Below, piece after piece: positions 25,482 through 55,308 of a DNA stretch of 64,000 nucleotides; position 1 is the first letter of the stretch; each line of letters opens with the position of its first letter. The notes under the pieces were generated by a model, which saw only the letters and a program-made list of their open reading frames with translations, ran no database searches and was not told the DNA's origin. A program made the translations under genes and the position numbers. The DNA is from Escherichia phage vb_EcoM-VR5: sequence record NC_028881.1, one strand, 5' to 3'.

Positions 25482-25730
25482 TTATTTAAGGGTAATAACA
25501 AAATGACGTACTGCTTTACGAGCTGCAGAAGCCAAAGGCTTAGCAAATTTCAGTTCATCTTTAGCTTCCAGCTCAGAAGCCAGGGCAGCCTGTACCGGGT
25601 TCAGATGTTTGAAATAACGCAGGATTTCCAGTGCTTCGGCTTCAACATCAATAGATGCGCCATAGTTTTCGTGACCGTTGTTCCAAGCGTTGCGTTGCAG
25701 TTCAAGAGCGTGATTCAGATGTTTGTTCAT
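25482..25730 (-). CDS. rIII: rIII lysis-inhibition accessory protein
   Basis: 82-aa ORF, same length as T4 rIII, directly downstream of gene 31. Confidence 0.65.
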   Translation of the reverse strand: MNKHLNHALELQRNAWNNGHENYGASIDVEAEALEILRYFKHLNPVQAALASELEAKDELKFAKPLASAARKAVRHFVITLK

Positions 25731-25876
25731 TTTAGTTTCTCAATTCGAGATAAAGATTGGTGGACACGTTCTTCTGAATTTCACTTCCTTTCGGCAAGTC
25801 TCTCAGTTGTAGTCCACCGCTTAGAATTGTTCGGTTAACTTATTATTCCGACACCCAATTCATATTATTATTTATA

Positions 25877-29277: not shown

Positions 29278-30477
<1,200 letters not shown>

Positions 30478-30481
<4 letters not shown>

Positions 30482-30996
30482 ACACCAAGCTCCTTATAAA
30501 GTTCTTCGCGACAGGTTTTAAGGATTTTACCAGTTTCATAAGCTGTGCTTTCAGAAACATCACCAAGTGCAGCGGCAGCTTGCATTTGGCCGTGGCGTTT
30601 AGCTGCGTATTCAAAACTTTTTACTAGCTCACGAATACGTTCTTTTTCATTGTACTCTTCAATGAATTCAGGGTATTCCCAAACCGGGCGCATCATACGA
30701 TACCACTGTTGGATGGTAATATAATTACTTCCATTCAAATTAATAATCTGTGAAGGCTCAATAGACCCTGGAGCATAAAAAGTTACCTGTCTTACTACAT
30801 CAATACCGTCTACAATAGCCCAAGCAAAATCGAAAGTTGCCTTCTTTTCAATCGGCGTGCTTGCACAGGACCCTAGTTTAAGGAGCTTTTGTAATACAGG
30901 AGATTTAATACTTGAAATGTATTCAGGCTTAGCCACAAAACTGTTATCACGTAATGTCATAATAATTTCCTCAATTTTTATAATCCGTAGGAGCAT
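30478..30996 (-). CDS. hypothetical protein (start uncertain: M1 or M13)
   Basis: 172-aa ORF; alternative ATG 12 codons downstream. Confidence 0.5.
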
Positions 30997-31127
30997 TATA
31001 CTCTGCTCCCAAGAGTTTGTAAACTACTTTCCAAAAAGACCGTGCATACACATGCTGAACACAATTCCGAAACAAAAGAATGCGGCGCCAAATCTAACAG
31101 CATCCCAACCACAAACACATGTCTCGA

Positions 31128-31418
31128 TCATTTACACCTCTCCTCTTTTAACCCAGAACGATAATAACATAACATAGATTTCTGGTCTTGTACATATCTT
31201 TTTACATCGTTTAACCAAATGCGATGTTCTTGGGAGTCTTCGAATGGCATTCCAACCCAAGCCTTACCATCGATTACCTTGACCTGCCATTTAACCGAAT
31301 GTTTGGTAATAGATTGTGGCCATGAAGGGTGTAGTTGTTGCTTAGGCGCCACAGGAATATCCTGAGCACACCCGACTAATAAGCCAATAGATAACATTAC
31401 TGCAGACAATTTAATCAT
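31128..31418 (-). CDS. outer-membrane spanin lipoprotein (o-spanin)
   Basis: 96 aa; signal peptide ending in lipobox LVGC; immediately downstream of the i-spanin, as the T4 pseT.2/pseT.3 pair. Confidence 0.7.
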   Translation of the reverse strand: MIKLSAVMLSIGLLVGCAQDIPVAPKQQLHPSWPQSITKHSVKWQVKVIDGKAWVGMPFEDSQEHRIWLNDVKRYVQDQKSMLCYYRSGLKEERCK

Positions 31419-31768
31419 TCTGTGATGCTCCTGAAGTCTTTGGCAAAGGAATCGAAGGAGTTGTTGATTTGTTTTTCGACCAATCCTGGCTTACTTGCCA
31501 CCACGTGCGCCTTCTTCGAATCTTTACGGAGCTTTTCATTTTCTACCTTAATTTTATCCATTCGGGCGTTCATTTCAGTAGTACGGAATTCAATATCAGC
31601 GTATTGGCCATGAAGGTCTTCTAAAGCTTCAGCGTTCTGTTTAGCTGTTTGCTGGGTTGTTTTCAGTTCTTCAGTTAGGGTATCAATACGGCTTGATTGA
31701 TACGAAATAAGACCGTAAGCACCTACTACAATGGCTCCGGCTAAAAGGTAAATACTTAATTTAGACAT
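31415..31768 (-). CDS. inner-membrane spanin (i-spanin)
   Basis: 117 aa; N-terminal TM segment (IYLLAGAIVVGAYGLI) followed by a charged coiled-coil-like region. Confidence 0.7.
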   Translation of the reverse strand: MSKLSIYLLAGAIVVGAYGLISYQSSRIDTLTEELKTTQQTAKQNAEALEDLHGQYADIEFRTTEMNARMDKIKVENEKLRKDSKKAHVVASKPGLVEKQINNSFDSFAKDFRSITE

Positions 31769-32256
31769 TTTGTAATAATCTCGATGATGTCATCACGTGA
31801 CAGGGAATTAATAAGAACCGTTTTAGGATTTTCACACTGAATTTTGTATGTTTCAAACATCACACACAATTCTTCAGAGGTATGGTAAGGACTTGAAATA
31901 CCGAGGCGATTAGTTTTATCACCCAGTGGGTCGCAAATCAAATAGAAAGTGATGCCATCGATTTTAACATTAGGTTGACTGATATTAATGAACACGTTGG
32001 CATCATATTTGGAAAGGTTGTTCTGAAGGAATTCGACCATAGCATTAACAGCTTCCGGCATGGCTTCACGTTTCTCTTCAGTATAACGAGTAGAATATTC
32101 TTTTTGTTTAATTTTCTTTTTAGCATTACGAGCCATCGTAACACGAAGGTCGGTGAGGTAACCAACTGCACGAGAACCTTTAAAAACTTGGATACCGTCA
32201 GTTGAGTCACCATAAGCCTTAACAATCATTTCGTTAGTGATAAGTTGCATGTTCAT
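31756..32256 (-). CDS. alc: Alc-like transcription termination factor, by position and size
   Basis: ORF trimmed to ATG at 32254-32256 (MNMQLITNEM...), placed 7 nt after GAGGAG and downstream of the promoter; 166 aa vs T4 Alc 167 aa. Confidence 0.6.
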   Translation of the reverse strand: MNMQLITNEMIVKAYGDSTDGIQVFKGSRAVGYLTDLRVTMARNAKKKIKQKEYSTRYTEEKREAMPEAVNAMVEFLQNNLSKYDANVFINISQPNVKIDGITFYLICDPLGDKTNRLGISSPYHTSEELCVMFETYKIQCENPKTVLINSLSRDDIIEIITKCLN

Positions 32257-32284: not shown

Positions 32285-32313
32285 ATACTATCACATCATG
32301 AGGAGATGTAAAC
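32285..32313 (-). promoter_or_regulatory. early promoter / PeSL-like cassette
   Basis: Minus strand GTTTAC-(17 nt)-TAGTAT with inverted repeat cctcatg...catgagg; same leader as 15687-15744. Confidence 0.55.
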
Positions 32314-37441: not shown

Positions 37442-37514
37442 TGGACTGATATTTATAGAATGAAATTCAGCCCAATCATAATAATCAAAAATAAGGTACC
37501 TATGATTTGAATTT

Positions 37515-50542: not shown

Positions 50543-53500
50543 ATGGCTACTTTAAAACAGATACAATTTAAAAGAAGTAAAGTAGCTGGTGTACGTCCTA
50601 CGCCAGCACAGTTGGCTGAAGGTGAGCTGGCTATTAACTTAAAGGACCGTTTACTTTTTACTAAAGACGACTCTGGCGCTATCATCGACCTTGGCTTTGC
50701 TAAGGGCGGTAATATTGATGGTAATGTTATTCACAAAGGTAATTATAACCAAACCGGTAATTATACTTTAAATGGTACCTTTACTCAGACAGGTAATTAT
50801 ACGACAACCGGAAGTGTAACGGCCAACGGTGATGTTACAGCGAAATCTCGTCTAATGACAGATAATGGTGAAGTTCTTGTACGGGGTGCAGGAACCGCCC
50901 ACGTTCGATTCCAGGATTTGGCTGATGCGCGTGAAAGAGGCATAATTTATTCACAATCACGCCCAGGAAATACCAAGCAAATCTTGAACGTTCGTGTCCA
51001 GGATTATACTAATTCAACATCTAATATTTTTGCATTCAATGGTGACGGTTTATTTTATGCTCCATCTATTTCCGGTGGAACATCGATAAAATCTCCGGTA
51101 ATTTATACTAATACCGTTGATACCGGTAATAAATCAGCTCTTGATTATGATATATCTTCATTGGCAAATAATAATTCTAACACAGATAAAAATAATTTGC
51201 GCGTTGTACGTACTGATGCAACCGCCGCAATGCTCCATGAAATTTGTGAAAATAACGGTATCAGTTGGTATTCTGGTTCAACCCCTACTGATTATATATT
51301 ATCTTTTGCTTATTCGGGTGGTTTTCAAGCAGGCCATTCGATTGCAGTAGGTATGGAATCAGGGCCTATGACATATTCAGCCTTAGGTAAAGGTTCTATT
51401 GCTTTAGGTGATAATGATACCGGCTTAAAATGGCATCAAGATGGATATTTTCATACAGTAAACAACGGCACTAGAACTTTCATCTACGGTCCAGAAGAAA
51501 CCGCTAGCCTTAGAAAAATGGTTATAGGTTATTCTGTAAATGGTACTGATTTAACTACGCCGCCGACAGAAAACTATGCGCTTGGTACCGTTGTTACTTA
51601 TCATGATAATAACGCCTTCGGTGATGGACAAACTCTTTTAGGATATTATCAAGGTGGAGCATACCACCACTATTTTCGTGGTAAAGGCACTACAAACATT
51701 AACACCGCGGGTGGTTTGTTAGTTACTCCAGGCAATATCGACGTGATTGGCGGTTTAATTAATATCGACGGTCGCAGTAATGCTTCAACCTTACTGTTTA
51801 GTAGCTATACTTCTGGTCAAAGCTCTGTCGATAATATGAATATACGCGTTTGGGGCGATACTTTTGCTACTGTAGGTGGTACTCGCAAAAACGTAATGGA
51901 AATATCTGATGCCACTAGCTGGATGCACTATATTCAACGAACTACAGCAGGTAAAGTCGAATCTTATTTAAACGGCGCGATGAACATCGTCGAAGGATTG
52001 TCTGTCGGTCAAGATGCATCCTTAAAACGCAATCTGTACGTTTCCAATGAAATTAAAGTTCGCGGTTCTAGTGGACTTCGTATTTGGAACGATAAGTATG
52101 GTGTTATTTTCCGAAATTCAGAAGACCAGCTGCATATTATCCCAACCAATATTAATGCCGGCGAAAGTGGCGGATTAGGCCCATTACGCCCATTAAGTAT
52201 TACGTTAGACACGGGCCGGGTTAAAATCCCTAACTTAGAAGCAGACCAGGTTTATTTTAGGGGTAATGGTGCATTGGAATTCCCTAATAGTAACGGTGCA
52301 TCTTATGCCAACCAGAACACGACTAAAGCTCTGTTGTATCAAACGCTCGATGCTGCAACTCAAGCATTTTATCCTATTACTAAGCAGAAAAATATCGATT
52401 CGAATGTAACTGTTACTCAAGGTATGGACCGCGCTACGAGCGAATACCGAATTGTTGCTCAAGGTGATTTGCTTGGTGATGGTGATGCTACAGGATTAAA
52501 ATACTGGCGCTTTACTAAAGAAGGTAACTTCATAACTCAGAACCACTTATATGCCGGTACAGCCTTCTTGGACACTGAAGGTAACATTTCTGGTTCTATC
52601 TGGAACAAATACTCTGGCGCCACTAACCTTGATGCAGCGGTGAATACCCGTGTCGGTAAAAGCGGTGATACAATGACCGGAAAATTGACTATTGAGGCTC
52701 CGGGTGATGCATTAGTATTAAGAACAACCACAGGTAATAGCTCGCATATCCGTTCTGATGTAAATGGTACGGGCAACTGGTACGTTGGTAAAGGTGGCGA
52801 TGATAACGGGATAGCCCTTTATAGTTATGCTACCAATTCTGGTATGTACATCACTAATAGCGGCGCTTTCAACGTAGAACTTTCCGGCTCCGGCTTAGCA
52901 ATGCAGATGAATTATTATCGCATGTATGTTAATGGTCGCCAATGGGTTGCTTCACAGGGTCATGGTTATGGAAACCAATGGCAAACCGAAGCTCCTTATT
53001 TCGTTGACTTTGGCGAGGCTGTTCCTAAAGATAGTTATATGCCGATTATCAAAGGAAGAAGCACTCTAATTACCGATGGATATTCTACTAAAGCAGACTT
53101 CGGTATTATTCGAAGCGCTGGAGCATCTACATGGGGTTCTGCTGTTATTCGTGTGGGTTCTGCTGAAAGCGGTGATGCAAGTCATCCTAATGCTATATAC
53201 GTTTTTGGCGCCGACGGCACCTTAACCGCTCCCAATGCTGTGAATGCCGCATCTAGAATGGGTGTCGGTACATCATGTTCATTACCAAATGCTTCTATTG
53301 CTATTGGCGATAACGATACAGGTCTTTCCACTAGAGGTGATGGTAGTCTAGGCGCGTATGCTAATGCTCAGAGTGTATTTTTCTGGGAAGCGGGTGGTAT
53401 TACGACCGAGCAAAACAAATTCTTAAACGTTAACGCAGGGATGTATGTTCGTGATAACATTGATGTTAACGACGTTTATATCCGTTCTGATATTCGTTGT

Positions 53501-54628: not shown

Positions 54629-54636
54629 TATAAATA
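54629..54636 (+). promoter_or_regulatory. late promoter TATAAATA upstream of holin gene t
   Basis: Exact TATAAATA 18 nt upstream of the t ATG. Confidence 0.6.
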
Positions 54637-54654: not shown

Positions 54655-55308
54655 ATGGAACCAAAAGTAGGATTTTCATTAACAGACCTACTTTTTGGAC
54701 TTCTTGATAGAATTTTTAAAGATACTACTTCCGGGAAAGTAGTTTTTTCCCGGGTCCTAGTCGTAATATTATTGTTCTTTATGACATTGATTTGGTATAA
54801 AGGCGAGTATATTCTAAACTTTTATAAAGAGACTACTTATGCCTCTTATACTGAAATGATTAGACAAGACCAGGACAATAGATTTAAAATTGCGGCTATC
54901 GAGCAGCTCCGAATAGTGCATTCTTCTTCAGGCGCAGACTTCACAGCAGTATATTCTTTTAGACCTACCAACATGAATTATTTTGTGGATATGGTGGCTT
55001 ATGAGGGTAAATTACCGGAAACGGTAGACGCAAAAAATACGGGAGGGTTTCCGATTGACAAAACGTCAGTAGAGTATATGGCGGGAGTTAACGGGAACTA
55101 TTTTGAATCATCTACTGAATCAGTGTTTCTCCCTACAAAAGAGAAAACTTATTTCACTTATATGTTTTCGTGCCCGTTTTTTAATTTGGATAACATCTAT
55201 GCCGGTTCGATATCATTATACTGGTATGACATCAAACCGGATTTAGGATTTCCTAGACTTTCGTCTATGTGTGGTCAGGCCGGGAGGACATTAGGTCGAA
55301 CTCGTTAA
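54655..55308 (+). CDS. t: holin T
   Basis: 217 aa (T4 T 218 aa); matches T4 holin (LFG.LDR.FKD...GKV, SRV.VVILLF, SAVYSFRP.N.NYFVD..AYEGKLP, YM.SCP.FNLDNIYAG.I..YWY). Confidence 0.9.
   Translation: MEPKVGFSLTDLLFGLLDRIFKDTTSGKVVFSRVLVVILLFFMTLIWYKGEYILNFYKETTYASYTEMIRQDQDNRFKIAAIEQLRIVHSSSGADFTAVYSFRPTNMNYFVDMVAYEGKLPETVDAKNTGGFPIDKTSVEYMAGVNGNYFESSTESVFLPTKEKTYFTYMFSCPFFNLDNIYAGSISLYWYDIKPDLGFPRLSSMCGQAGRTLGRTR

Follow-up and report, generated by a model that had tools for sequence, protein, structure and literature searches.

A T4 PseT.3/PseT.2-family gene pair, almost certainly a two-component spanin, in a Dhakavirus-type T4-like coliphage

The region at positions 31128-31768 of the window (the whole 64,000-nucleotide stretch of phage DNA that was analysed) almost certainly encodes the two-component spanin of a T4-like coliphage (Dhakavirus, JS98/IME08-type). 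The preliminary description had read the two genes located here as an i-spanin and an o-spanin, and this reading was borne out by the PHROG families, the alignments with T4 proteins, the synteny, the lipobox and every other feature open to testing: the i-spanin and the o-spanin show all testable hallmarks of a two-component spanin of the T4 PseT.3/PseT.2 family, and no observation speaks against it. The pair is already known and already annotated in a well-studied phage group, and nothing new is present. The 117-aa and 96-aa open reading frames described earlier were recovered with identical coordinates on the minus strand, which that description had left unstated, and the overlapping stop and start codons reported for them correspond to an ATGA at 31415-31418:

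31415..31768, minus strand: i-spanin gene, pseT.3 ortholog, 117 aa plus stop (ORF call, PHROG 739)
31128..31418, minus strand: o-spanin gene, pseT.2 ortholog, 96 aa plus stop (ORF call, PHROG 812)
31415..31418, minus strand: ATGA stop/start overlap joining the i-spanin and o-spanin genes (read from the sequence)
31428..31432, minus strand: AGGAG Shine-Dalgarno sequence of the o-spanin gene, 9 nt 5' of the ATG and within the 3' end of the i-spanin gene

Both proteins matched PHROG families annotated as 'Rz-like spanin' over nearly their whole length, the i-spanin PHROG 739 (E = 2.1e-35) and the o-spanin PHROG 812 (E = 1.1e-42), and weaker PHROG matches (E = 4e-7 and 4e-5) linked the coiled-coil region of the i-spanin to other Rz-like families. 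Alignment with T4 PseT.3 and PseT.2 (sequences taken from the T4 RefSeq record), which had been proposed as a check, covered the full length of both proteins and gave 42% identity for the i-spanin (E = 4e-26; 117 vs 117 aa) and 68% identity for the o-spanin (E = 3e-49; 96 aa vs 99 aa in T4). Relatives of the o-spanin were found by tblastn in 1587 phage records and relatives of the i-spanin in 1064. Since the PHROG E-values (2e-35 and 1e-42) and these tblastn matches show homology, chance ORFs were excluded. Among precomputed Pfam assignments, PF26831 was present on all 22 o-spanin homologs, and PF10828 was assigned to the two nearest homologs of the i-spanin. A scan against a local copy of Pfam-A, which probably predates or lacks these two families, left the o-spanin without a match and, for the i-spanin, returned nothing beyond coiled-coil families below threshold (DUF3450, ATG16); neither protein matched the Pfam families of Rz or Rz1 at E <= 0.01. 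NCBIfam yielded nothing above threshold for the two proteins, the matches being sub-threshold and of coiled-coil type only, and the PDB sequence search returned only chance-level matches for both (fibronectin, Slc8a3; E about 1), and therefore no relative with a solved structure. In one related phage, Shigella phage Sf25, the o-spanin gene call is 150 aa long, with an upstream start that is probably wrong.

The arrangement of the two genes is highly conserved. Fourteen related loci were compared, comprising the window, T4, IME08 and eleven contigs from IMG/VR. In every one the i-spanin gene is followed directly by the o-spanin gene on the same strand, and in all 14, T4 among them, the genes show the -4 overlap, that is, a 4-nt ATGA in which the i-spanin stop codon meets the o-spanin start codon. 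The i-spanin and o-spanin genes are translationally coupled via this ATGA.

The neighbourhood of the pair also corresponds to that of T4. With T4 proteins as tblastn queries on the window, denA, rnlA and alc were located directly upstream of the pair and pseT downstream of it, all on its strand, giving the gene order rnlA-alc-pseT.3-pseT.2-...-pseT that is found in T4 and IME08. The pair thus lies between alc and pseT, the position that characterizes the PseT.3/PseT.2 family, and Pfam supported the Alc, PseT and RnlA assignments. The same mapping placed cd, gene 31, rIII, gene 32, gene 34, holin t, asiA, motA and rIIB in T4 order. The pair had been described as lying upstream of alc, which holds in plus-strand numbering but not in the direction of transcription, in which it is downstream of alc. 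The neighbouring gene and the other lysis genes of the window are:

31756..32256, minus strand: alc, inhibitor of host transcription (PF17527, E = 4.5e-40; T4 Alc aligns from 32256)
54655..55308, plus strand: holin t, with which the spanins act in lysis (54% identical to the T4 holin, E = 6e-82)
25482..25730, minus strand: rIII, lysis inhibition (88% identity to T4)

The 3' end of alc overlaps the start of the i-spanin gene by 13 nt, and holin t is 23 kb from the spanin pair. With the spanins, the lysis gene set in the window (holin t, rIII, spanins) is complete, and the pair confirms that the window derives from a Dhakavirus-type T4-like phage. Several other observations were made in these surroundings. 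The mechanically called alc ORF comprises 176 aa with a start at 32286, and an early-type promoter (32313..32285) overlaps that first ATG; a GAGGAG Shine-Dalgarno sequence precedes the ATG at 32256, and the true extent of alc is probably 31756..32256 (166 aa), in agreement with the IME08 annotation. The window lacks an equivalent of T4 pseT.1. The corresponding place (30182-31127, minus strand) is taken by a 131-nt gap, which contains an early-type promoter, and by two unrelated ORFs, one at 30478..30996 (minus strand; phrog_4482, function unknown), which probably starts at M13 (30960) after a GAGG Shine-Dalgarno sequence and is unannotated in the IME08 RefSeq record, and one at 30182..30481 (minus strand; 99 aa, phrog_2364). 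For T4 gp34, a weak third tblastn piece (residues 958-1101; 51812-52228, plus strand; 34% identity) was found about 3 kb past the end of the gp34 match, suggesting that a downstream tail-fibre gene has a repeat or domain in common with it.

The 117-aa protein had been described as an N-terminally anchored coiled-coil protein. Its parts are:

31703..31759, minus strand: N-terminal transmembrane anchor, i-spanin residues 4-22 (Kyte-Doolittle)
31493..31699, minus strand: periplasmic helix alpha1, of coiled-coil type, i-spanin residues 24-92 (heptads, AlphaFold2)
31421..31489, minus strand: helix alpha2, i-spanin residues 94-116, after the K93-P94-G95 break (AlphaFold2)

The anchor was confirmed: the best 19-residue Kyte-Doolittle window covers residues 4-22 (mean 1.95), and a hydrophobic N-terminus was present in 14/14 related loci. 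A lysine (K3) precedes the transmembrane domain (TMD) and the 15 residues after it carry a net negative charge, and these flanking charges would fit an N-in/C-out topology. The coiled-coil label proved accurate, with clear heptad periodicity in the first periplasmic helix only: within residues 24-86, 67% of the heptad a/d positions are hydrophobic, compared with 13% of the other positions (shuffle p = 0.001). In the AlphaFold2 model, built with 20 homologs (mean pLDDT 85), the protein consists of two helices, 3-92 and 94-116, the first of which is unbroken (pLDDT about 90), with the helix break at K93-P94-G95. The i-spanin thus corresponds to its class, in which one TMD at the N-terminus is combined with a periplasmic domain that is mostly helical and of coiled-coil type. 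In the homolog alignment, variation is free in the TMD and in the greater part of alpha1, whereas the most conserved block, residues 76-111, runs from the last part of alpha1 over the Pro-Gly break into alpha2, with K93, P94, L96, V97, E98, K99, Q100, I101, N102, S104 and F105 invariant; alpha2 is the putative contact region for the o-spanin. Cysteines are absent from the i-spanin, both in the window and in 14/14 related loci.

The 96-aa protein, which begins with MIKLSAVMLSIGLLVGC, had been described as a lipoprotein with the lipobox LVGC. It contains the following segments:

31368..31418, minus strand: lipoprotein signal peptide, o-spanin residues 1-16, with lipobox LVGC and Cys17 (PS00013-type match)
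31134..31169, minus strand: C-terminal segment with Cys84 and Cys95, corresponding to T4 PseT.2 C87 and C98 (T4 alignment)

The PROSITE PS00013-type match consists of the lipobox L14-V15-G16-C17, K3 in the n-region, an uncharged and hydrophobic signal core and Ala at +2. In a scan of all 157 ATG-ORFs of the window with a length of 50 aa or more, the o-spanin was the sole match to the lipoprotein pattern, and the match is therefore not sequence background. Cys17 was invariant and G16 nearly so among 22 o-spanin homologs, and a lipobox with Cys17 and without Asp at +2 was found in 14/14 related loci. At the level of the pattern, the o-spanin thus carries the signal peptidase II (SPII) signal without Asp at +2 that its class calls for, and the cleavable lipoprotein signal, the absence of which would have spoken against the earlier description, is present. 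The mature protein contains two periplasmic cysteines suited to homotypic disulfides, C84 and C95, which were invariant in the 22 cluster representatives, and two cysteines near the C-terminus were found in 13/14 related loci. Identity among the 22 representatives ranged from 53 to 96%, which indicates that the o-spanin is probably under purifying selection. The structure model of the o-spanin (strand-strand-helix-strand) has low confidence (mean pLDDT 55) and agrees with the published beta-alpha-beta secondary structure of PseT.2 (PMC6139136). The most conserved blocks of the two proteins, i-spanin residues 76-111 and o-spanin residues 44-95, would fit an interface of the complex. The o-spanin contains 5 Pro in 79 residues and is not proline-rich. 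A unimolecular spanin of the T1 gp11 type was rejected as a candidate: the C-terminus of the o-spanin shows no hydrophobic segment, and it is the other protein that carries the membrane anchor.

Spanin function has been shown experimentally for the T4 orthologs only, and the window pair is known from its sequence. A lambda RzamRz1am lysogen regains lysis when supplied with T4 pseT.3 and pseT.2 (Kongari 2018, PMC6139136). The exchange C87S or C98S in PseT.2 abolishes lysis, both cysteines being needed in T4, and the disulfide-linked PseT.2 dimer is seen only when PseT.3 is present (PMC6139136). By orthology with the T4 pair, topology, lipidation, complex formation and fusion may be envisaged for the window pair as follows. 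Signal peptidase II would cleave the o-spanin before Cys17, which would be lipidated, and the Lol system would take the protein to the outer membrane because the +2 residue is Ala, not Asp. There the o-spanin would bind the C-terminal part of the i-spanin in the inner membrane, the two together bridging the periplasm across the meshes of the peptidoglycan. As reported for T4, C84 and C95 would first form a disulfide within one molecule and would then isomerise to two disulfides between o-spanin molecules. The complexes would accumulate harmlessly, inert while caged by peptidoglycan, until holin T triggers, the endolysin is released and the wall is degraded, upon which the spanins could move laterally and change shape. 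The freed spanins would then fuse the inner and outer membranes, and the last barrier to progeny release would be gone; membrane fusion is the current view of the action of lambda Rz/Rz1 (PMC5295617).

Two sites resembling T4 early promoters flank the block formed by alc and the spanin genes:

32285..32313, minus strand: T4-early-type promoter-like site, GTTTACA-N16(TG)-TAGTAT, upstream of alc in the 56-nt rnlA-alc gap
30995..31024, minus strand: second early-type site, GTTTACA-N17-TATAAT, strong, in the 131-nt gap after the o-spanin gene

The motif upstream of alc was also found in T4 and IME08, likewise between rnlA and alc. Across the window, GTTTAC-N15-18-TANNNT occurred 20 times compared with 4.0 expected, and 17/20 matches were on the minus strand; many copies of the early-type motif have a TG-extended -10 element (e.g. 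57864, 58188, 61514, 40725). The late-promoter motif TATAAATA was absent from the vicinity of the pair, the nearest copy on the coding strand being at 37450-37457. This motif was found directly before holin t (54629-54636) and, on the rIII strand, before rIII (25869-25876); its 8 occurrences in the window, compared with 7.2 expected, are at chance level. No convincing intrinsic terminator was found after the o-spanin gene (the 106-nt downstream fold had z = 0.01, and the consensus scan was at chance level). Judged from motifs only, the alc-pseT.3-pseT.2 unit seems to be transcribed from an early-type promoter and not as part of a late lysis cassette.

This apparent co-transcription with alc, together with the early-type promoter and the lack of a late motif within about 5.7 kb upstream, is the reason for considering that the spanins are installed early, so that complexes would already be in place in the envelope during the very first minutes of infection and could serve a further purpose before lysis, such as linking the two membranes while lysis is inhibited or acting on superinfecting phage. 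We regard such a dual role as very unlikely; if true, the fast-diverging TMD and alpha1 and the frozen interface of alpha2 and o-spanin would reflect that role. Early-type transcription units far from the holin are also where exclusion functions tend to sit, and small phage lipoproteins are known in exclusion and receptor-masking roles, so that the lipoprotein and its membrane partner might, like the lipoproteins T5 Llp or phi80/N15 Cor, exclude superinfecting phage or mask receptors rather than take part in lysis. The likelihood of this is close to nil, as the genes are clearly orthologous to T4 PseT.3/PseT.2, a pair that replaces lambda Rz/Rz1 in lysis, and as a TMD/coiled-coil protein encoded directly before a lipoprotein, together with conserved periplasmic cysteines, is the hallmark of a spanin.

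A lytic function of the pair could also be questioned on the basis of one relative, vB_EcoM_005 (IMG/VR, locus L014), in which the o-spanin has lost its last 33 codons, including both essential cysteines, as would be the case if this lineage kept the pair as a conserved remnant whose function is decaying or dispensable and disrupted the outer membrane in some other way. Set against this, both ORFs of the window are intact with every family-invariant residue present, 13/14 related loci are intact, and the 53-96% identity of the o-spanin among the 22 representatives indicates purifying selection; we consider a remnant highly improbable, and a functional two-component spanin remains the preferred reading. 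In vB_EcoM_005 itself, at L014 2501-2740 (equivalent to window 31083-31232), about 51 bp of unrelated sequence stand in place of about 150 bp, leaving an o-spanin of 63 aa without the two C-terminal cysteines. Either the assembly is in error or the isolate is naturally defective in its spanin and, if the sequence is real, the spanin pair would be dispensable under laboratory propagation.

The practical value of the assignment lies in annotation hygiene, as wrong labels can be corrected by transfer from T4. In OM386655.1 (vB_EcoM_ESCO10), positions 125445-126345, the closest relative of window 31000-31900, four genes are labelled 'thioredoxin', an evident annotation error, and in many GenBank relatives the spanins are labelled 'hypothetical protein' or 'putative membrane protein'.

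Compared with known spanins, the pair shows weak similarity, in the coiled-coil region, to the two-component spanin LysB/LysC of P2 (TIGR03495 phage_LysB, E = 6e-4); membership in the P2 LysB family was rejected (20 bits vs a curated NCBIfam cut-off of 92.75), and the P2 genes have the 'overlapped' architecture, unlike the window pair. Lambda Rz/Rz1, as is expected of the window pair too, combines an inner-membrane coiled-coil protein with an outer-membrane lipoprotein and has disulfide-linked homodimers. In lambda, however, Rz1 is embedded in Rz (+1 frame), whereas the window genes are separate and lie outside any late holin-endolysin cassette. The window o-spanin is larger than Rz1, predicted to be structured and not rich in proline, and the cysteines are in the o-spanin only (both are required in T4). 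Membership in the Rz/Rz1 sequence family was rejected on the grounds of no Pfam match, genes that are not embedded and an o-spanin that is not proline-rich; the window pair would work like lambda Rz/Rz1 without belonging to the Rz/Rz1 family.

The T4 pair, which has the 'separated' architecture, away from holin and endolysin (PMC6139136), is like the window pair in protein lengths (117 vs 117 aa; 96 aa in the window vs 99 aa in T4), gene order and ATGA overlap, in its neighbours (alc upstream, pseT downstream, rnlA and denA beyond), in the lipobox LVGC with Cys17, in the two C-terminal cysteines of the o-spanin with none in the i-spanin, and in the alpha1/alpha2 layout of the i-spanin. Relative to PseT.3, the TMD and alpha1 have diverged (42% identity overall) while residues 76-111 are nearly unchanged, and relative to PseT.2, the linker of the window o-spanin is 3 residues shorter and the +2 residue of the lipobox is Ala instead of Ser. 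Closest of all are the Dhakavirus phages (JS98, IME08, JS10, vB_EcoM_IME281, ESCO10), in which the block is 91-96% identical to the window at the nucleotide level (96% in vB_EcoM_ESCO10, 91-93% in the JS98/IME08 group). Their spanin proteins are 91-97% identical to those of the window and differ by a few point substitutions only, and the Dhakavirus RefSeq records name the genes pseT.3/pseT.2 'Rz-like spanin'.
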